This document shows, one piece after another, positions 1,708 to 13,007 of a stretch of 13,007 nucleotides of DNA. The translations under genes were made by a program, and so were the position numbers. Each line of letters opens with the position of its first letter. Positions within the stretch are counted from its first letter, which is position 1. The notes under the pieces were generated by a model. The model was not told the DNA's origin and ran no database searches. It saw nothing but the letters and a program-made list of their open reading frames with translations. The stretch comes from a virus, in the UHGV virus genome UHGV-0203085; one strand, 5' to 3'.

Positions 1708-1744
1708 TAAGTGAATAGTAACCTATTATGTTGGGGGCGTGCAA
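1708..1744 (-). promoter_or_regulatory. promoter-like element D (minus orientation): TTGCAC, 18 nt, TACTAT, then conserved TTCACTTA
   Basis: Minus-strand reading cTTGCACgcccccaacataataggtTACTATtcactta. It has 3 mismatches to the 28-bp core shared by elements A and B, and its downstream 21 bp (cgtttcgataagtgaatagta, plus 1700-1720) matches the window-end copy C with one mismatch. It lies about 20-50 nt upstream of the ATG at 1689. Confidence 0.4.
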
Positions 1745-2055: not shown

Positions 2056-2107
2056 TATTCCAACATTTACAATTGAGCGGAATAACTGGAATACGTAAAC
2101 AAATAGT

Positions 2108-2143
2108 TTGCACACCCCAATATAATAGGGTACTATTCAGTTA
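2108..2143 (+). promoter_or_regulatory. promoter-like element A: TTGCAC, 17 nt, TACTAT, then conserved TCAGTTA
   Basis: The 28-bp core ccaatataatagggtactattcagttaa is identical to element B. -35-like TTGCAC at 2108-2113, -10-like TACTAT at 2131-2136; an embedded TATAAT lies in the spacer. It is followed by AGGAGG and the ATG at 2162. Confidence 0.45.
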
Positions 2144-2161
2144 ACTTAAACAGGAGGGTGT

Positions 2162-2407
2162 ATGCAGGAGTTACCTAGTTTCGAACGTGAGTTCATTAGC
2201 GGTTTCATACCGGTTACTAATTTCAGTATACAGGATTTATTTGACTTAAGAGAAAACGGCAGACTTTGGGTGTGCAATGCCAAGGATGTTTCAAACGCTA
2301 GAGTATGGAACTTTAGTTTAATGCGCCGCCCGAACAAATCTGGTGAAGGTGCTGTTGGCATGGATTTGTTGCGGCGCAAAGGTAAGCTATTCATGAGAGT
2401 GCAGTAA
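2162..2407 (+). CDS. hypothetical protein, 81 aa (moron-like cassette A)
   Basis: ATG 2162 with AGGAGG 6 nt upstream; own promoter-like element upstream and an intrinsic terminator immediately downstream; opposite in orientation to the flanking minus-strand genes. Confidence 0.6.
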   Translation: MQELPSFEREFISGFIPVTNFSIQDLFDLRENGRLWVCNAKDVSNARVWNFSLMRRPNKSGEGAVGMDLLRRKGKLFMRVQ

Positions 2408-2411
2408 AACT

Positions 2412-2434
2412 AAGGCCCCGTTATGGGGCCTTTT
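2412..2434. terminator. bidirectional intrinsic terminator (stem AAGGCCCC / GGGGCCTT, loop GTTAT)
   Basis: 8-bp GC-rich stem at 2412-2419 and 2425-2432, followed by TTTT on the plus strand and by AGTTTTA on the minus strand. It sits between the stop of the + ORF (2407) and the stop of the minus ORF (2436). Confidence 0.6.
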
Positions 2435-2435
2435 A

Positions 2436-2897
2436 TCATTCTGGCTTCGTAACCTTCGCCGCTCTACTTACCACCTCTACACCATCGGCATCAGTAACTT
2501 TAACGAAGTATTCACCGACAGCATTAACCGTCAGAGAAAGAGTCTCTTCCGGGGCATTTACTACTTCCTTTCCGTCCTTGTACCAGGTCAGCACATACGG
2601 TGCTTTGCCTGCCTTAGCCTCGACAGTGATGATTGCGCTGCCGTCTGCCAGTTCCGTGTCTTTCGGTTGCACGGAGAAATACACGTCGCCCGCGTCCGCC
2701 AGATACGGAATTTCATAAAGCATACCCGCCGCCGGTAGTGCAATACCAGTTTTATCCGCAAACGGCATATCGTCTACTGGTGTACCGAGTACACTTTCAT
2801 CTTCAATAAATACCACATTCTCGCCGGAGCCAGACACGCGGGCGTACTGGACTACGCGACGCGACGGCACATCAGTTACTTTGAAAAATCCCATCAT
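2436..2897 (-). CDS. Ig-like (BIG-type) domain protein, 153 aa, probable virion-associated or decoration protein
   Basis: ATG 2895-2897 overlaps the TAA of the upstream head morphogenesis gene (TAATG coupling). C-terminal YVLTWYKDGKEVVNA...TLSLTVNAVGEYFVKVTDADG has the alternating pattern of an Ig-like beta sandwich. Confidence 0.6.
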   Translation of the reverse strand: MMGFFKVTDVPSRRVVQYARVSGSGENVVFIEDESVLGTPVDDMPFADKTGIALPAAGMLYEIPYLADAGDVYFSVQPKDTELADGSAIITVEAKAGKAPYVLTWYKDGKEVVNAPEETLSLTVNAVGEYFVKVTDADGVEVVSRAAKVTKPE

Positions 2898-4756
2898 TAT
2901 TCCCCTTTCAGATAATCAGCAACACGTTTATCGAGTTCCGCCATCTGCTTAAGTGTCAGCGGATTCCCGAAACCATCTACAGATATTACGCGAAACTCTT
3001 CCGGCGATATACCGCTGTTACGGAAAATCTTACCTCGCACCGGGCCGAGTGCTTCATCCACGAACCATGCCGGTTGTTGTTCAAGGAACTCGTAGTAAGT
3101 GGTGTCCGCGCTTACCTGAGTACCGCCGTCCGCACCCTTAGCTGCGCGTTTCGCTCCTTTATCGAGGAAGTCGAACTCTGAACTGATCACAGGCGCGGTT
3201 GTTGAGCGGCAGTTATGTGCTATAATTCCATTAGCAAGATACCAGTTCTGTTCATTTTCGAGGTTATAAACATGCCCGCAAAAATCAGCTTCACTAAAGA
3301 CCAAATCGACAACATCATCAAGCTCTACACCGACGGCATCGGACCAGTTGAAATCGGAAAGATTATCGGCGTTTCGTGTAGTCCAGTCATACGCGTTCTC
3401 AGAGAGAACGGCGTTACCATTCGCGGAGGCAGCGACGCTATGTTCATCCGAATGGCTAAAGCTACTCCCGAGGAGCGCCTCGCTCTCTCCGCCGCGGCGC
3501 ATGAAGCTGTCCGAGGGAGAAAGGCCGACCATGCTGAACTGCTTCGCAGAGCCAAAGCCAGGGAGGGAGTCATCAACGCCGGCAGTCACTGGGAGTTCCT
3601 TGTCAATGATTTGCTTATTCAGTCCGGACTTGACTTTATCCCAGGAAAGGCGGTCGACAAGTACAATCTCGACTTCGCCGTCGGTACCGTCGCCGTGGAA
3701 GTCTTCGGGGGAGGTTGGGCTTGTACTGACCGCCGCCGGATTGACCGTTACATTAGCCGCACTAAACAAATCGGAGAACTTGGCTACAACGTTGTGTTCC
3801 TTATGCTTGAGAGAGAGCGCAGAGTCCTTAGCGCACACGAGCTTGTCACCTACATTGAGAAGGCCGGAAGCAACCCAACCACTGGCGGTCAATACCTGGT
3901 GGTTTGGGGTGATAGACAAGGTGCGACCGGACTTTGTAGAGACATAGACTATAGTGCCTTTGTACGCCCGTTTAAAAATGTTAGAAACAGGGCTACCGGT
4001 AGATACTACAGTGTCCCCAAGTAAACAATTAGGGTGGGCCGGAGGCATCGGCCCTTTACCAATTTCCCACGTCATCCCGTCCCTGGCTCTGCAAATCGTA
4101 CTGGTACGACTATCAAGCGTTGACACCCACTCGTATTTCTCGATGATGTCGTCGTTCTGGCGGTACGTCTCGTTGCGGGCCTCGTTGGATACGTGAGCCA
4201 GCGCGGTGCGGATTACGGTAGCTGCATTACGTTCAGAGATGTCCGCCAGTCCACCAGCGCCTACGACATTCTTAACAATCTGCCGTGTCGTCTGGCCTTG
4301 GACAAAGCCCATCTTAACGCCGGTTACCAGGCGCGATACTTCTGTTTCACCCCAGCCCGACATCAGCTTAGTGAAGTCAACCGGCTTGTCGCTTAATGAT
4401 AAGGGTTGAAACTCGGCAGCGGCCCATACCTGTTCCGCGGTAGGCGTAATAAACTCGGCGTTAACGTTGGTGGCCAGCGTTTTTACGTTCCACTCTGCCT
4501 CATAAGCCGCCAGTTCTTTAAGGTCTTCTGTCAGTTTTGTTTGCCAGTCACCCGTAAGTCCCGCCAGTGCTTCTTCGAGGTCGCGTAACAGCTTATTTAG
4601 CCGCGCGGTACTACGACCGTCGTCGCCGAATAACAGCACCTGCCGTTTGATTTCGTCCCGCATCTCCTTAAGGAACGGCGCGAGGTCTTTCACTTCACCG
4701 GATGCGGTGCGTTGCAGCCATATCTGGTGGCTGATTAGAGATGTAAGTAAGCTCAT
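2897..4756 (-). CDS. head morphogenesis protein (Phage Mu F / SPP1 gp7-like) interrupted by an intein
   Basis: Long minus ORF; best start is ATG 4754-4756 with AGGAGGG 3-4 nt upstream (track ORF begins at TTG 4813 with no RBS). The N-extein ends ...WVSTLDSRTSTICRARDGMTWEIGKGPMPPAHPN, which I recall as the Mu F signature preceding HPNCRC. The gene lies directly downstream of the portal gene, as expected by synteny. Confidence 0.8.
   Translation of the reverse strand: MSLLTSLISHQIWLQRTASGEVKDLAPFLKEMRDEIKRQVLLFGDDGRSTARLNKLLRDLEEALAGLTGDWQTKLTEDLKELAAYEAEWNVKTLATNVNAEFITPTAEQVWAAAEFQPLSLSDKPVDFTKLMSGWGETEVSRLVTGVKMGFVQGQTTRQIVKNVVGAGGLADISERNAATVIRTALAHVSNEARNETYRQNDDIIEKYEWVSTLDSRTSTICRARDGMTWEIGKGPMPPAHPNCLLGDTVVSTGSPVSNIFKRAYKGTIVYVSTKSGRTLSITPNHQVLTASGWVASGLLNVGDKLVCAKDSALSLKHKEHNVVAKFSDLFSAANVTVNPAAVSTSPTSPEDFHGDGTDGEVEIVLVDRLSWDKVKSGLNKQIIDKELPVTAGVDDSLPGFGSAKQFSMVGLSPSDSFMRRGGESEALLGSSFSHSDEHSVAASANGNAVLSENAYDWTTRNADNLSDFNWSDAVGVELDDVVDLVFSEADFCGHVYNLENEQNWYLANGIIAHNCRSTTAPVISSEFDFLDKGAKRAAKGADGGTQVSADTTYYEFLEQQPAWFVDEALGPVRGKIFRNSGISPEEFRVISVDGFGNPLTLKQMAELDKRVADYLKGE
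3212..4027 (-). mobile_element. intein, 272 codons (Cys1 ... His-Asn, +1 Cys)
   Basis: In-frame insertion beginning CLLGDTVVS (block A; Cys codon = plus 4025-4027), with TLSITPNHQVLT (block B, T-x-x-H) and GWVASGLLNVGDKLV in the N-terminal Hint part. The C-terminal Hint part is ADFCGHVYNLENEQNWYLANGIIAHN, followed by +1 Cys (plus 3209-3211). The central region is S/A/D/G-rich with no LAGLIDADG, HNH or GIY-YIG motifs. Confidence 0.75.
3272..4024 (+). CDS. antisense-nested ORF, 250 aa: HTH plus DUF559/Vsr-like (PD-(D/E)xK-type) putative homing endonuclease
   Basis: ATG 3272 with GAGG about 8 nt upstream (an in-frame ATG at 3215 gives the 269-aa track ORF). N-terminal HTH-like IGPVEIGKIIGVSCSPVIRVLRENGV. 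Central block WEFLVNDLLIQSGLDF...YNLDFAVGTVAVEVFGGGW...RRRIDRYISRTKQIGELGYNVVFL matches the DUF559/Vsr pattern (D-F ... hEhDG.W ... R ... GY.V) as I remember it. The ORF is bounded by antisense stops at 3203-3205 and 4022-4024, so it spans the intein to within 2 codons. Confidence 0.55.
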   Translation: MPAKISFTKDQIDNIIKLYTDGIGPVEIGKIIGVSCSPVIRVLRENGVTIRGGSDAMFIRMAKATPEERLALSAAAHEAVRGRKADHAELLRRAKAREGVINAGSHWEFLVNDLLIQSGLDFIPGKAVDKYNLDFAVGTVAVEVFGGGWACTDRRRIDRYISRTKQIGELGYNVVFLMLERERRVLSAHELVTYIEKAGSNPTTGGQYLVVWGDRQGATGLCRDIDYSAFVRPFKNVRNRATGRYYSVPK

Positions 4757-4800
4757 AAGCCCTCCTGTAGTATCGCCAGTGTAACGCATAAAAATAATAT

Positions 4801-4836
4801 TTGCAGACACCAATATAATAGGGTACTATTCAGTTA
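4801..4836 (+). promoter_or_regulatory. promoter-like element B: TTGCAG, 17 nt, TACTAT, then conserved TCAGTTA
   Basis: The 28-bp core (4809-4836) is identical to element A. It lies in the divergent intergenic region between the head morphogenesis start (4756, minus) and the + ORF at 4861. Confidence 0.45.
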
Positions 4837-4860
4837 AACGACAACGAGGAGGAAGAAAAC

Positions 4861-5016
4861 ATGATTAATGCTAAAGAAGAGTTGCTCGCCCATCTGGATG
4901 GTAAAGATGTAGTTAAATGCGCCTGGTTTGCAGATTATGACGCAGATTACGGTTTCGTTAAGGGAGTAAATGGCTCCTGCGGGAGAATTACTCTCGCGGA
5001 GAATGGGAAAGCCTAA
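4861..5016 (+). CDS. hypothetical small protein, 51 aa (moron-like cassette B, first ORF; not in track)
   Basis: ATG 4861 with AGGAGG 8 nt upstream; translation MINAKEELLAHLDGKDVVKCAWFADYDADYGFVKGVNGSCGRITLAENGKA; TAA 5014-5016 overlaps the next ATG (TAATG). Confidence 0.45.
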   Translation: MINAKEELLAHLDGKDVVKCAWFADYDADYGFVKGVNGSCGRITLAENGKA

Positions 5017-5180
5017 TGGCTGCGCTTGATTTTGAATATCACAACGGTTACGGCGGTCAAAACTTCTTCGGCGTAATTTGGTACGAAGATGGTACATGGT
5101 CTTCTCGCGGAGAATACGATGGTTCTGAATGGTGGGAATATAATGCCGTGCCAGATGTGCCAGGAGAACTTAAGCGCTAA
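5016..5180 (+). CDS. hypothetical small Gly/aromatic-rich protein, 54 aa (moron-like cassette B, second ORF; not in track)
   Basis: ATG 5016-5018 coupled to the upstream stop; translation MAALDFEYHNGYGGQNFFGVIWYEDGTWSSRGEYDGSEWWEYNAVPDVPGELKR; TAA 5178-5180 followed 4 nt later by a terminator hairpin. Confidence 0.45.
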   Translation: MAALDFEYHNGYGGQNFFGVIWYEDGTWSSRGEYDGSEWWEYNAVPDVPGELKR

Positions 5181-5184
5181 AATT

Positions 5185-5210
5185 AAGGCCCCTTTCGGGG
5201 CCTTTTCTTA
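5185..5210. terminator. bidirectional intrinsic terminator (stem AAGGCCCC / GGGGCCTT, loop TTTC)
   Basis: Same stem sequence as the terminator at 2412-2434. Followed by TTCTTA on the plus strand and by AATTTTA on the minus strand. It lies between the + cassette (stop 5180) and the portal stop (5208-5210). Confidence 0.6.
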
Positions 5211-6701
5211 TTGCTGCTGTTGGTCTTGTGGAGATTGTTCCTGTCTTGCTGTAGCAGGAATCTCCCCTGCCACCTGAGTGGCAGCACCTAACGGCAGCGG
5301 TGTATCCTCGATAGCGTTCTGAATATCCTCGTCAGTCCAGTCGGTTACTCCAGCTTTACGCAATGCCGCGTAGTAAGCGGTAGCCGGTAACAGGCCCGCG
5401 TTAATATCAGCCATCCACTGTGCGCGGTCCTGAGCGGTCATCGGTTGCAGGAAGAACTCCATGTTCAGCTTGAACTCAATTTCTGTGCCTTCACGCAACC
5501 CCAGCATAGCAGCCACCCAGCGCAACGCATCGGTATACGCCATGCTTACGTTACGTGCGATTGTTGCCATAACAGACGTATCGGCACCACGTTGCAGGCG
5601 GGCTGATTCAGCGGTTATTTGCTGTGTCGGGGTAATAAGCTGCGCCCCAATCTGGATCGCCTGATTCTCTTTATCCAGCATGTTCTGTTTGGCAAGGTTG
5701 TTCTCTCCTGCCTGAACCAGAAACGCATTGCCGCCGTAACCGATGTTATGACCTGAACGCGACCCCATGCGAACGCCGTGGGGGTTGGCTTCCGCCCACT
5801 GTTCCATGCTCATGTTCTCGCCCGGGGCGATGAACAGAGTGGGTTGACCTACAACGAAGCTGGACTCCTCATTGTCCGCGCTGTTGCGAAAATGCCCGAT
5901 ATTAAGCTCGGCCAACGGCAGCAAAGGCGCATCGTCAATGGTTGCATCGTTGTTGCTTGCCCCGATGAACGTGAACGGGATTTTGCCGCGTAACTGTTCG
6001 CCGAGTTCCGGGAATATCTCGATTACTTCGTCCTGAGCGCCACCTTCGGCATCGAAGCGGTAAATGCGCTGACGATAGCGATCTTCGATAATGTCAAGGA
6101 CGCGGTACTGTTCACCAAATTTTGTTTCGAACTCTGCGCCTGGTTCCGAATATTCCCATACCTCACGCAGCACGACCATTGTCACGCGGTTCACTGAACC
6201 GATACGGGTCAGGCGCCAGTTGATGATGTTCTCTGCGGTGTAAAACGCGATGACCGGGTTTAATAACCCCGCGTTCTGTTCTGCTGCCGTCGCTGCGGCT
6301 GTCTCCGGCGCATCCACCAGCAAGCCTCCACGCCCCACTGAGTCAATCTCCATCAGCGTATCCTGCGCGTGCTGCCACAGCCCGACACCAGAACCGTCTG
6401 CATTGCGTAACAGGTATTCCAGTTCAGGCGGGATAATCTGTTCAGGGTCTTTGCGCATCACCGACCCCACCATCCCCGCCAGGGTACGTTTAGTGAAGTT
6501 GTAGCAGATAGCGCCGTTTTCGTATTCTTCCTGGCGCTGTGCTGCGTAGACCGGGTCGGGTTCATTCTTCCCGACGTTGCGCAGGTAACGGATAAGGTCG
6601 CCTTCCAGAGCGTGGCGGACCTTCTGCCATTTATCGAAGTGATGCAGCCATTCCCGGTGTTTTGTCTTAACACCCTGATTCTGACCGTTCATAGTTAACA
6701 T
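5208..6701 (-). CDS. portal protein (putative), 497 aa
   Basis: ATG 6699-6701 with AAGAGGA 7 nt upstream; size and position immediately after the large terminase and before the Mu F-like gene fit the usual terS-terL-portal-MuF synteny. No motif-level confirmation is possible by eye. Confidence 0.65.
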   Translation of the reverse strand: MLTMNGQNQGVKTKHREWLHHFDKWQKVRHALEGDLIRYLRNVGKNEPDPVYAAQRQEEYENGAICYNFTKRTLAGMVGSVMRKDPEQIIPPELEYLLRNADGSGVGLWQHAQDTLMEIDSVGRGGLLVDAPETAAATAAEQNAGLLNPVIAFYTAENIINWRLTRIGSVNRVTMVVLREVWEYSEPGAEFETKFGEQYRVLDIIEDRYRQRIYRFDAEGGAQDEVIEIFPELGEQLRGKIPFTFIGASNNDATIDDAPLLPLAELNIGHFRNSADNEESSFVVGQPTLFIAPGENMSMEQWAEANPHGVRMGSRSGHNIGYGGNAFLVQAGENNLAKQNMLDKENQAIQIGAQLITPTQQITAESARLQRGADTSVMATIARNVSMAYTDALRWVAAMLGLREGTEIEFKLNMEFFLQPMTAQDRAQWMADINAGLLPATAYYAALRKAGVTDWTDEDIQNAIEDTPLPLGAATQVAGEIPATARQEQSPQDQQQQ

Positions 6702-6713
6702 TGAATAATCCTC

Positions 6714-7964
6714 TTAAAGTGCGAAAGTCACCGGGATGTTGATTACTGGTTTAACCACCGGCATCTCATAAACTACAGGATAGCCGAGAGCATCCGCCAT
6801 ATGGTCGATGATGCCGTCTTTAGCTGGCTCTCCGTTATCGTCGTATGCCTGCTGCTCCAGCGTCTTCGCTATCTCAGGGCATAAGTGGTCGTTAACCCAC
6901 AGCTTACCTTTTTCCAGTGCGGTATTCACGGCTAAAACACGGTCTTTAACCGGAGGGTTGGCGGATTTAGCGCGAACATCGAACCCGGCCTGCTGGAGTA
7001 ATGCAATATCAGAGATTGACGCTGAGTTGGTTTTGCGGTTCTTGCCGCTGGCGTCAGGGTAGACGACAATACGGTGTCCTTGCGACTTCCACTTCTCGTT
7101 AATTACACGCACGGTGTCCGGCGTATCGAACAGGCCTTTCAGTTCTGCTACCGCGTGCCAGCCGTCTTTACGTTGCACATACACGGCGCTTGCGTTCTTC
7201 GTAACGTTGAAGTCCTGCCCGATGTACAGTGTGTCACCAGGTTGAATTGTCTCTTTGCTGCGGTGCTTACGTCGGTCATAGGCGTAATACACGCTGCCGG
7301 ATGTCAGGTTGACGAACTCACCATTAAGATACGCGTTAATCAGTTGCGCCGGGTAAGTCTCGGTCAGTGAGCTGATGTAATCCTGCGGCAGGAATCGCGC
7401 ATTCTCGTGTGTGGAAGCCTGCACCATCGAGTAACTCGGCGTCGGATTCTCTTTGAACTTGGCGTAGACGAACTTGAACCCTTCCGGCGTCGTGGTGACA
7501 GAGATGTGGTTAATTACACCTGGTATAACCAGACGCATACGGGCTACGATTTTGTTCCACGCCAGCTCAGCTTTCTCGCGGCTCAATACGTCCAGCTCAT
7601 CCACGACCGCAGCCGCGATTTTGAAGCCGACTATCGAGCCGGGGTTATCCATCGAGCGGCAGATAACAGTTCCGAGCACCGTCTTACCGCGAGTAACCAC
7701 GACTTCTTTGTCGCCGGATTTAACCAGCACATCAAGGCCGAGGAGGTTAGCCGCTTCCTCGAATGTAGGGTAGAAGATGTCGCGGATAGCCGGGTATGTC
7801 GGACCGAAGTAGCCCAGGCGCGTACCTGGGTGCTTGAGTATAAACGTAAGCAGGTCCAGGCAGCCAACAAATGTCTTACCACTACCGAAGCCCCCGACAT
7901 AGGCCTTGTATTTGTTATCGCAATTCAGGAACAGTGCCTGTGGTGCGGATAGCTGAATACTCAT
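6714..7964 (-). CDS. terL: terminase large subunit, 416 aa
   Basis: Walker A ATPase motif YVGGFGSGKT near the N-terminus (residues about 23-32); ATG 7962-7964 overlaps the stop of the upstream gene (ATGA); followed by the portal gene. Confidence 0.85.
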   Translation of the reverse strand: MSIQLSAPQALFLNCDNKYKAYVGGFGSGKTFVGCLDLLTFILKHPGTRLGYFGPTYPAIRDIFYPTFEEAANLLGLDVLVKSGDKEVVVTRGKTVLGTVICRSMDNPGSIVGFKIAAAVVDELDVLSREKAELAWNKIVARMRLVIPGVINHISVTTTPEGFKFVYAKFKENPTPSYSMVQASTHENARFLPQDYISSLTETYPAQLINAYLNGEFVNLTSGSVYYAYDRRKHRSKETIQPGDTLYIGQDFNVTKNASAVYVQRKDGWHAVAELKGLFDTPDTVRVINEKWKSQGHRIVVYPDASGKNRKTNSASISDIALLQQAGFDVRAKSANPPVKDRVLAVNTALEKGKLWVNDHLCPEIAKTLEQQAYDDNGEPAKDGIIDHMADALGYPVVYEMPVVKPVINIPVTFAL

Positions 7965-8506
7965 TCCTCCACCTCGCCCATGTTCGTTGTTACGATTTTA
8001 CCTACAGGCTCCGCAACACTGAAAATAATCTCAGTAGGTGCTGTTTCTTCTGTCGATTCAACTGGTTTCTCTTTTCCGAGGCCCAGCTTCGCGGCAGCAA
8101 ACGTAGCGGAGATGCCAGCGGCCCCCGTCTCGGTGAAATAGGCCTCTTCCAGAGCCTGTGCTGTCTCCCAGGCTTCTGCAAATGCGGGAATCTCGCGCAG
8201 CCACAGCTTAATAATCGGGATAGTGACGCCGATGTGTAGAGCAAAGCGGGCCAGTGATGGTGGCTTATCCTGAATCAGCGGGCGTTCATCGCCCTTAGAC
8301 GTAGGCACAAGCTCCCACGACGTGCGGTCGAAGAACTCGATTAATTCGTCGCAATAGTCCGGGTCCCACAACGCGGCGGAATTACGGGATGATTGATAAA
8401 GGCTCTGTTTACCGCGCGGTCGTCTACGGCGACGGTTTGCGCTAACAGCTTCTTCATGTGCAGCTTGCACCACCTCTGGCGATGGCTGCTTGAGTTTCAG
8501 CTTCAT
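7961..8506 (-). CDS. terS: terminase small subunit (putative), about 181 aa
   Basis: Immediately upstream of and translationally coupled to terL. Best start is ATG 8504-8506 with AAGGGGA 4-5 nt upstream (track ORF starts at GTG 8545). Basic N-terminal region (RRRRRPRGK) and a helical core are consistent with a small terminase; assignment is mainly by position. Confidence 0.5.
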   Translation of the reverse strand: MKLKLKQPSPEVVQAAHEEAVSANRRRRRPRGKQSLYQSSRNSAALWDPDYCDELIEFFDRTSWELVPTSKGDERPLIQDKPPSLARFALHIGVTIPIIKLWLREIPAFAEAWETAQALEEAYFTETGAAGISATFAAAKLGLGKEKPVESTEETAPTEIIFSVAEPVGKIVTTNMGEVEE

Positions 8507-8523
8507 AGAATCCCCTTGCATAT

Positions 8524-8579
8524 GCGTCTGACCATCAGAGCGCACCAGACGCGCCCTACGCGTCTAAATGGATTATATA
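8524..8579 (-). promoter_or_regulatory. terS leader: TATATAAT box (no -35) followed by two mutually exclusive GC-rich hairpins
   Basis: Minus strand reads cccttaTATATAATccatttAGACGCGtagggCGCGTCTGgtgcgctctgatggtCAGACGCatatgcaaggggattctATG. The heptamer GCGTCTG/CAGACGC occurs at plus 8524-8530, 8546-8552 and 8559-8565, allowing hairpin 8547-8565 or hairpin 8524-8552. Confidence 0.3.
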
Positions 8580-10796: not shown

Positions 10797-11285
10797 TCAA
10801 CCTTTCACCGCACGCCCGATAGCCTCAGCCTCCTGCCACGGTTTACCGTCGAACAGCGCCAGACGACCGGCGGTACGGCGGCGCAGGCCAAGCAACGGTT
10901 TGCCGTTCTGGTTGATGAACCGCGCCAGCTTAGCCCGCAGCGTCGCAATATCGCCCGAGCGCAACGCCTTACCTGTTCCGGTAGTAGCGGCAATCACACC
11001 CGCGCCTGCGTTATAGACCAGGTCGCACACTGCATCGAACTGTGCTTGTGTCAGTGAATGGTTCGCTGCTGCGTCAACCGCGGCTACGGCCTTAGCCATA
11101 TCGCGATTCAGTAACAGGAGACCTTGGCCTGGGGTGATGGTCTTGCCTGGAGTTACATCTGGCCCGTAATGACCGTAACCAATAGTCAGGTACTTCTCGT
11201 TCGGTGTAGCACGATACACAGTTCCACGGAATCCCTCAAACGCGGCGGTAAAATGCAATCCATTATCTGAAATATTTCGAGACAC
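10797..11285 (-). CDS. endolysin, GH24 phage lysozyme (P22 gp19-like), about 162 aa
   Basis: Motifs ISDNGLHFTAAFEGFRGTVYRA...YLTIGYGHY...GKTITPGQ...LTQAQFDAVCDLVYNAGAG...GLRRRTAGRLALF follow the P22-type lysozyme pattern from memory. The likely start is GTG 11283-11285 with GGAGGG 7 nt upstream; the track ORF extends further upstream without an RBS. Confidence 0.8.
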   Translation of the reverse strand: MSRNISDNGLHFTAAFEGFRGTVYRATPNEKYLTIGYGHYGPDVTPGKTITPGQGLLLLNRDMAKAVAAVDAAANHSLTQAQFDAVCDLVYNAGAGVIAATTGTGKALRSGDIATLRAKLARFINQNGKPLLGLRRRTAGRLALFDGKPWQEAEAIGRAVKG

Positions 11286-11535
11286 GCTTATTCCCTCCGT
11301 ATGACAGCCACGCCTGGCGAATCTGGCGTAGCGCAACTAATGTGATTAACGTCTCAGGCAACGTGGGTGACATGCTGCCCTGTAACAGGTGGATACATCC
11401 GGCGGCGCAGACAATAGCGGTCAGGATATAGAGCACCCGACCAAATAGCCCGTCGTCAACGCTGGGATGATACACATTAAACAGCGATGTCCCCCCGATT
11501 GCCAGCATACCGCCGAACCAGAATAACTCATTCAT
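11263..11535 (-). CDS. second holin-like membrane protein, 90 aa (holin or antiholin candidate)
   Basis: ATG 11533-11535 overlaps the end of the upstream holin gene (ATGAATGA); two hydrophobic segments (FWFGGMLAIGGTSLF and VLYILTAIVCAAGCIHLL) and a basic C-terminus; the track ORF 11263..11715 is an N-terminally over-extended version. Confidence 0.45.
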   Translation of the reverse strand: MNELFWFGGMLAIGGTSLFNVYHPSVDDGLFGRVLYILTAIVCAAGCIHLLQGSMSPTLPETLITLVALRQIRQAWLSYGGNKRVSKYFR

Positions 11536-12990: not shown

Positions 12991-13007
12991 TAACTGAATA
13001 GTAGTCT
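12991..13007 (-). promoter_or_regulatory. promoter-like element C (minus orientation), truncated by the window edge
   Basis: Minus strand reads ...agacTACTATTCAGTTAtcgaaacg; the 13-bp core TACTATTCAGTTA is identical to elements A and B, and the 21 bp at plus 12983-13003 match element D (1700-1720) with one mismatch. The -35 region would lie beyond position 13007. Confidence 0.3.

Follow-up and report, generated by a model that had tools for sequence, protein, structure and literature searches.

Organization of the locus and coding strand of the cargo gene

The window described here is the whole stretch of DNA that was analyzed, 13,007 bp of the virus genome UHGV-0203085, and the element under study is a compact plus-strand unit within it, cassette A (2108-2434), which runs antiparallel to the head genes. 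By megablast, the window belongs with the Kagunavirus/Guernseyvirinae siphophages of Escherichia coli and Salmonella: 484 phage records match it, the best with 88-92% identity across 60-73% of its length, and none of the 484 covers at least 80% of it. Read from left to right, the locus comprises a conserved flank (2042-2093, +), an expression platform (2094-2161, +) holding -35 and -10 elements, a palindrome, a predicted transcription start and an AGGAGG ribosome-binding site (RBS), a cargo gene of 81 codons (2162-2407, +), a hairpin terminator (2412-2432, both strands) and, on the minus strand, the gene of a Hoc-like head decoration protein with an immunoglobulin-like (Ig) domain (2436-2897). 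The latter matches phrog_3945 (E value 5e-85), displays weak matches to Ig domains and is the conserved right neighbor of the site.

A first reading of this DNA, made from the sequence only, had proposed an 81 amino-acid plus-strand open reading frame (ORF) preceded by an AGGAGG. Both are in place: the ATG frame 2162-2407 is open and reproduces the translation given then, and the AGGAGG occupies positions 2152-2157 (+), 4 nucleotides before the ATG. The minus strand also harbors an ATG ORF, 82 amino acids long (2146-2394) and antisense to the first, an extended equivalent of which is annotated in the RefSeq record of phage RP180 (NC_048181.1) as ORF6 (5783-6136), on the strand opposite to the 81-residue gene. 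Were this the real gene, it would run in the direction of the head genes and there would be no antiparallel cassette. Its frame is mostly open in the relatives, and the variable sites fall on its third positions too. A codon-position test for the coding strand was dropped, as the two frames share their third positions and the variable columns fall on both, which makes the pattern uninformative; it was replaced by the ratio of nonsynonymous to synonymous substitution rates (dN/dS), the conservation of starts and stops, and the genomic context. The plus-strand ATG and AGGAGG are conserved among relatives, whereas the antisense ATG has become an Ile codon in 8 of 8 relatives and the antisense frame contains an in-frame stop in five. 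The median dN/dS amounts to 0.09 for the plus frame and to 0.18, twice as much, for the antisense frame. The antisense ORF furthermore lacks an RBS, and its start would fall inside the terminator. In phages NTEC3, 590B, phiSD1, VIPECOMC04 and EP-B-K_E2, the homologue of the plus frame comes second in the early operon, co-oriented and translationally coupled (GTGATG), so that the antisense ORF would lie there on the wrong strand of a tightly packed operon. Finally, other annotators call the plus-strand ORF. Taken together, these comparisons indicate that the plus-strand ORF truly encodes a protein, that it is under purifying selection and that the 82-residue ORF is a shadow ORF, RP180 ORF6 being an annotation error; the reverse assignment is hardly credible.

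The predicted promoter platform

The DNA upstream of the cargo gene is best read as a promoter with TTGCAC (2108-2113) as the -35 hexamer, a 17-nucleotide spacer and TACTAT (2131-2136) as the -10 hexamer. An alternative reading takes TTTGCA as the -35 with an 18-nucleotide spacer, and agrees with the sigma-70 consensus at 8 of 12 positions. A TATAAT is embedded in the platform (2121-2126, +), the palindrome AATAG-N4-CTATT (2124-2137, +) overlaps the -10 region, and transcription is predicted to start near 2143 (+). Upstream of the homologue of Salmonella phage TS6, a protein 40% identical to that of the window, the 5' untranslated region (5'UTR) is still alignable and TTGACA-17-TAATAT stands at the corresponding position; these near-consensus hexamers support TTGCAC and TACTAT as the -35 and -10 elements.

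The same sequence recurs elsewhere in the window. Positions 2087-2144 are repeated over 58 nucleotides, with 81% identity, at 4780-4837, upstream of a sister unit called cassette B, and the promoter core is found inverted ahead of the first early gene (1708-1744) and once more across the window ends, where it is split (12991-13007 plus 1-5). All four copies read TTGCA(C/G), 8-9 nucleotides, ATAATAG-NN-TACTATTCA, with a Shine-Dalgarno sequence and an ATG following after 13-22 nucleotides; the palindrome also occurs at 4817-4830 and 1714-1727 (-). As the spacer varies by 1 nucleotide, a fixed-spacing promoter pattern caught one copy only, and the core pattern was used instead: ATAATAGNNTACTATTCA has three in-window matches against 0.00 expected, and the motif counts four copies, including the one spanning the ends, against 0 expected. 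The promoter-like element that had been claimed here, which a generic sigma-70 scan missed, is upheld by these copies. With its -35/-10-like hexamers 18-54 nucleotides upstream of the ATG, the motif provides the cassette, on sequence evidence, with a promoter of its own.

The complete genomes of the relatives L AB-2017 and RP180 contain 6-7 copies of the motif each. They occur ahead of the first early gene and of an internal early gene, around a DicA-like repressor gene and ahead of an antiparallel cassette of the tail module, RP180 having an additional one at the head of the cassette A site. The tail-module block, which encodes a phosphoesterase, a polynucleotide kinase/phosphatase and an ATPase, is headed by the motif at 4743-4800 in L AB-2017 and at 15980-16015 in RP180. 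It hence appears that a single early-class promoter serves every antiparallel insertion in the late regions of such phages. Variant copies of the motif cluster near the DicA-like repressor gene of the relatives.

A PHIRE analysis of Kagunavirus fBC-Eco01 has yielded the consensus tgAATAGTa-ccTATTat-T, present seven times per genome (PMC9825357). Positions 2122-2139 of the window read ATAATAGGGTACTATTCA, the reverse complement of that motif, the copy number per genome is alike, and the same core precedes the first early gene of the window, of L AB-2017 and of RP180. The motif of fBC-Eco01 has been assigned to a phage-encoded RNA polymerase (PMC9825357). In contrast to that account, the motif overlaps sigma-70-like hexamers here, and the annotations of the complete relatives L AB-2017 and RP180 list no RNA polymerase gene; a host polymerase assisted by a phage regulator is therefore more economical. 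The palindrome looks like a plausible shared operator. An early-operon promoter class, together with an operator-like palindrome lying on the -10, points to early transcription of cassette A by the host polymerase, and the motif common to the early operon and cassette B suggests that the cassette would be expressed early.

The predicted terminator hairpin

The hairpin AAGGCCCC-GTTAT-GGGGCCTT (2412-2432) possesses a GC-rich stem of 8-9 bp and lies between the convergent cargo and Hoc-like genes. It begins 5 nucleotides past the stop codon of the 81-residue ORF and is followed on the plus strand by TTATCATT, so that the unit ends with a predicted terminator of its own. A 46-nucleotide context folds with -18 kcal/mol, with z scores of -2.8 on the plus strand and -3.7 on the minus strand, in line with the hairpin terminator first proposed. 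The stem is equal letter for letter to that of cassette B at 5185-5204, as had been noticed from the sequence; the two cassettes have the promoter in common as well. An exact AAGGCCCC-N4-GGGGCCTT is expected 0 times by chance. Among the relatives, whether they carry the same or another cargo, the stem is unchanged and the loops vary (gttat, aaac, gtaat, ataac, tttc, ataat, attac). An Rfam search over the whole window gave no match at cassette A and sub-threshold matches elsewhere only.

The hairpin had been described as bidirectional, and this holds for one direction better than for the other. On the plus strand, a U-tract is present from 2431-2434 onward (UUUUAUCAUU), whereas the minus-strand tail, AGUUUUAC, makes a poor one. 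Moreover, the Rz, scaffold and capsid genes of the complete relatives are accessible to late minus-strand transcription only across the hairpin, and efficient termination on this strand is doubtful for that reason.

A variable slot and its cargos

A 401-nucleotide query across the cassette matches 181 phage records, four of them with full coverage and the others through the flanks only. An 801-nucleotide query retrieves 310 phage records in which the corresponding span ranges from 495 to about 1,270 nucleotides. The 81-residue ORF occupies the site in four records only, GZMU_E2010, RP180 (two records) and LM08P2; elsewhere, the site holds an unrelated cargo, as in most of the other records, or is empty. 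Phages of the Bas70-76 type, such as Bas71, carry a 67 amino-acid protein (Bas71_0006); fEg-Eco19 a 173 amino-acid protein, gp23c, labeled "sliding clamp / DNA pol III beta" and annotated as a possible moron gene product; LSPA1 a 179 amino-acid HNH-type "endonuclease VII" (LSPA1_07); ER23 and S119 adenine methyltransferases; and phiSD1 and Golestan two small genes. Nothing is found at the site in K1G, K1ind1, K1ind3, FSL SP-101 and L AB-2017, where the span is 495 nucleotides instead of 801. The cassette is thus present or absent at one junction of otherwise collinear genomes. It had been proposed that conservation of the unit at this position in all relatives, with structural-gene homology, would speak against an accessory cassette; in the comparison with relatives, the ORF is not fixed at the site, being there in 4 of about 310 records.

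The limits of the slot can be drawn precisely. The left flank (2042-2093) is kept whatever the cargo, empty-slot phages included, with 94-100% identity in 8 relatives, and the boundary of presence and absence lies directly 3' of position 2093: in the empty slot of L AB-2017, ...ggaataactggaata (window 2079-2093) runs straight into a hairpin. The platform itself (2094-2157) displays 98-100% identity over 63-64 nucleotides with phages bearing other cargos, compared to 86-91% only for the adjoining Hoc-like gene. The slot cargos of fEg-Eco19, Bas71 and LSPA1 resemble cassette A in site, orientation and near-identical promoter, 5'UTR, RBS and terminator, but their ORFs are unrelated to the 81-residue family. 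Conversely, the phages that carry the same ORF match the window up to about 2138 only and then continue with another 5'UTR, while the 5'UTR of the window (2139-2157) is of the type attached to other cargos (fEg-Eco19, Bas71). Since the same ORF is preceded by a different 5'UTR in those phages, the unit of the window would be a recombinant with its crossover at the RBS. The ORF also deviates in composition, with a G+C content of 43.1%, where the window has 50.1% and the Hoc-like gene 51.1%.

From these alignments, the promoter, 5'UTR, RBS and terminator are to be regarded as a platform resident in the lineage and not imported with the gene, only the ORF being exchanged. Variation at the slot takes two forms: the ORF between RBS and hairpin is swapped, or the whole promoter-ORF block is absent.

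A platform more conserved than its cargo, accepting unrelated ORFs, could also mean that the cassette acts mainly at the level of RNA or transcription, insulating or dampening the late head operon or making a cis-antisense RNA, with an incidental peptide. The convergence of cassette A with the Hoc-like gene, the hairpin common to both, and the recurrence of this design in cassette B and in the relatives' tail module would suit such a role. It is nevertheless improbable: K1G-type phages are viable without the promoter and thus can dispense with the platform; the ORF, with its dN/dS of 0.09, is subject to purifying selection, has homologues of 31-39% identity elsewhere and a confidently predicted fold; and an antisense role is impossible for the co-directional homologues of the early operons.

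The 81-residue protein family

The cargo protein has a mass of 9.5 kDa, an isoelectric point of 10.0 and a net charge of about +3.5. Its family is found in 15 of 50,697 phage records, with one match per record, at 5 loci in IMG/VR and, in a set of 5.8 billion proteins, in 27 clusters (90% identity). When 1.84 billion representatives were searched exhaustively with an HMMER profile, only three clusters were returned, all of this same family. Homologues are recognizable down to 31-39% protein identity. Among 21 sequences of 31-93% identity to the window protein, residues E8, F15, L29, L35, R55, P57-N58-K59-S60-G61, L70 and L76 are invariant, so that an R-x-P-N-K-S-G loop (residues 55-61) is strictly kept in proteins of 75-98 amino acids. 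As far as these searches reach, the RxPNKSG family is very small and restricted to the Guernseyvirinae.

Three genomic contexts are observed: the cassette A slot, the second gene of the early operon, and a site in Jersey-like Salmonella phages. In the latter, the homologue stands alone and antiparallel, flanked by the scaffold gene and by a 114 amino-acid ORF, which is taken here as Rz-like although it is not annotated so. The early-operon homologues of NTEC3 (gp37), 590B, phiSD1 (gp28) and VIPECOMC04 (VIPECOMC04_00024) clearly belong to the same family, with 74-75% identity and all invariant residues, including RRPNKSG. They differ from cassette A in being embedded as the second gene of the operon, not stand-alone and antiparallel, and in their short C-terminal extensions (84-98 amino acids). 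The label "tail length tape measure protein" given to the homologue in phiSD1 is a mis-annotation.

No motif had been recognized in the protein by eye, and homology searches, run together with the structure prediction that had been proposed, brought no informative match. Scans against Pfam, PHROGs, NCBIfam and PADLOC gave none or chance-level matches for the 81-residue protein, and a PHROG scan of all family members identified phrog_30617 (unknown function) only, in two distant members. A profile search against PDB sequences stayed at chance level (E value of 0.34 or worse), and a BFVD search reached other uncharacterized small phage proteins with E values of 3.6e-3 or worse. An AlphaFold model, built on an alignment including distant members, displays a predicted local distance difference test score (pLDDT) of 86.8 and a predicted template modeling score (pTM) of 0.75. 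Its elements follow the order helix, strand, helix, strand, strand, loop, helix, strand, the invariant loop standing just before the last helix.

The cargo of LSPA1, an HNH-type nuclease, raises the question of whether the slot is kept by selfish homing endonucleases, the 81-residue ORF being a passenger or remnant without benefit to the phage, and HNH homing endonuclease genes do lie nearby in fEg-Eco19 and in the early region of NTEC3. The protein shows neither a nuclease motif nor a nuclease family match, purifying selection acts on its family across the three contexts and down to 31% identity, and neither the window nor GZMU_E2010 or RP180 has an endonuclease gene beside it. It is thus very unlikely that the gene is there as mere baggage of such elements.

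An apparently circular window closed through a repeat

The left context of the cassette requires caution. Bases 13007 and 1 of the window are neighbors in L AB-2017 (22682|22683), and the left 2 kb of the window correspond to the proximal early operon, which is located past the right end of the window in complete genomes. A repeat of about 145 bp (1898-2041, +) precedes the slot; each complete relative has two copies of it, one upstream of the slot and one in the early divergent control region (13368-13510 and 24339-24482 in L AB-2017, 6135-6279 and 38056-38200 in RP180). Compared within one genome, these copies share 78-80% identity. The single copy of the window resembles the control-region copy in its left part and the slot copy in its right part, and the changeover falls within an identical core at about 1975-2008. 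A promoter-like site, TTCACA-18-CATATT (1996-2025, +), lies inside the repeat; folded as RNA, the repeat gave z scores of -2.2 and -0.4 and no convincing structure. The distance from repeat to repeat via the packaging genes is 13,074 bp in RP180, compared to 13,007 bp for the window. In sequence terms, the window looks like a rotated circle closed through the 145-bp repeat, a form that may have come from the assembly, as an artefact, or from genuine recombination.

This bears on the placement of cassette A beside the divergent control region, which is literally true in the window but is owed to the repeat junction: in the complete relatives, the left neighbors of the cassette are a small ORF and the Rz/Rz1 spanin, scaffold and capsid genes. 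The window alone would allow the 81-residue ORF to stand first in the rightward arm of the control region, as a core early gene and no insertion into the head module, since it directly follows that region, has a promoter of the early class and possesses homologues in the early operons of other Kagunaviruses. Against this stand the adjoining of bases 13007 and 1 in L AB-2017, the occurrence of the 1898-2041 repeat at both loci with a crossover in the identical core, and the left neighbors Rz, scaffold and capsid in every complete relative with the 81-residue cargo at the slot. The early-operon homologues, moreover, sit on the other arm, that of the small early genes, and not on the helix-turn-helix/helicase arm. 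A core early gene at this place would accordingly be a great surprise.

Three independent metagenomic contigs with TS6-type homologues stop 110-137 nucleotides upstream of the homologous gene. Such ends suggest that repeated promoter or control sequences routinely break the assemblies of such phages.

Cassette B and other features of the window

Cassette B (4801-5204, +), the sister of cassette A, is inserted between the head-morphogenesis and portal genes. It is composed of the same promoter motif (4801-4836, +), a small ORF of 51 amino acids (4861-5016, +), an ORF of 54 amino acids (5016-5180, +) matching phrog_3972, of unknown function, and the shared terminator stem (5185-5204, +). The junction is empty in most relatives, with a span of 207 nucleotides instead of 601, and none of the phage records covers at least 80% of cassette B. 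In Salmonella phage S532, the same junction holds an "amidase".

Besides numerous small early genes, PHROG scans of the window identified head and packaging genes on the minus strand: those of the head morphogenesis protein (2897-4813), the portal (5208-6701), the large terminase (6714-7964) and the small terminase (7961-8545), together with that of the endolysin (10797-11336, -). The head-morphogenesis protein is 638 amino acids long in the window and 347 in L AB-2017, and positions 3203-4025 of its gene (-), about 824 nucleotides, are without counterpart in the latter phage. In the relative fEg-Eco06, a gene is labeled "minor head protein with inserted intein"; the extra segment may be an intein or else an inserted domain. 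In second place in its early operon, the window has a 67 amino-acid ORF (1222-1425, -) without PHROG match, and NTEC3-type phages have a homologue of the 81-residue protein there. This difference points to a second variable site used by the family.

Interpretation and significance

The observations above are well accounted for if cassette A is a stand-alone accessory transcription unit in a hypervariable cargo slot within the head module of a Kagunavirus-type siphophage, and this is the likely explanation; such confidence concerns architecture and evolution, and is low for any specific function of the protein. A resident platform, made of the promoter motif, 5'UTR, AGGAGG and shared hairpin, is kept by the lineage at this site, which has the Hoc-like gene on one side and, as complete genomes show, the Rz/Rz1-scaffold genes on the other. 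The host RNA polymerase would probably transcribe the cassette early in infection, against the late head operon, and stop at the hairpin, the unit being probably shut off together with the other early promoters. Exchange of cargos would proceed via homologous recombination in the conserved platform and terminator.

Several points weigh against this explanation. The generic sigma-70 scan (at least 9/12) calls no promoter directly upstream of the 81-residue ORF, the -35/-10 hexamers being weak (8/12); the plus-strand U-tract is short and that of the minus strand poorer. Promoter use, timing and termination are all read from the DNA. The published time-course transcriptome of a Kagunavirus is too coarse to place the gene, which that phage may not carry, and the literature on Kagunavirus morons, promoters and transcriptomes offered just generic category counts, the PHIRE motif and this coarse time course. 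Finally, the left context of the window appears to be chimeric or circular, the neighbor in the source phage being deduced from relatives.

A moron, in the definition of Juhala and Hendrix, is reportedly an extra promoter-gene-terminator unit between conserved genes, for example in the late regions of HK97 and lambda. Cassette A resembles the lambdoid morons in its own promoter and terminator, its presence or absence in collinear genomes, its deviant G+C content and its location in the late structural module. Lambdoid morons, however, belong to temperate phages and are linked with prophage expression and lysogenic conversion, whereas Kagunaviruses are described as lytic and devoid of lysogeny genes, and the annotations of L AB-2017 and RP180, both complete relatives, include no integrase. 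For lytic phages without integrase, expression from a prophage does not apply, and the term moron-like, used in the sequence-only reading, can be retained on the strength of promoter, terminator, distribution and composition, where a strict moron cannot. A further difference is that lambdoid morons bring imported signals, whereas the predicted promoter and terminator of cassette A are resident, lineage-specific and of the phage's own early class. Its closest precedents are the other cargos of the same slot, one of which, in fEg-Eco19, is already labeled as a possible moron.

What the protein does can be proposed tentatively: this basic protein might be an early host-takeover or counter-defence factor that binds host nucleic acid or protein through its invariant loop, a guess made from context and composition. 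A broader and somewhat more doubtful idea joins two claims, namely that the RxPNKSG protein would be a new effector, acting early in counter-defence or host takeover, whose fold is absent from the structures solved so far, and that the Guernseyvirinae platforms (the slot, cassette B and the tail-module cassette) would form a lineage-wide "plug-in" system in which unrelated genes are exchanged via recombination at the RBS and terminator.

Taken as a whole, cassette A represents a phage accessory slot of an ordinary type, whose cargo is rare and uncharacterized, and would not surprise a specialist. Counter-defence genes tend to occur in hypervariable, early-expressed slots, and a rare, conserved, foldable basic protein in such a slot is a reasonable, if unproven, candidate for anti-defence screening. 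For assembly, the 145-bp and promoter-motif repeats of these genomes can close or break contigs. Kagunaviruses are common therapeutic-candidate and model coliphages, for instance in the BASEL extension. Their Hoc-like/Rz intergenic site is a tolerated, self-expressing cargo slot bounded on the left directly after position 2093 and on the right at the terminator, and such a defined slot is useful both for phage engineering, as a place for payload insertion, and for annotation, as the wrong strand called in RP180 illustrates.

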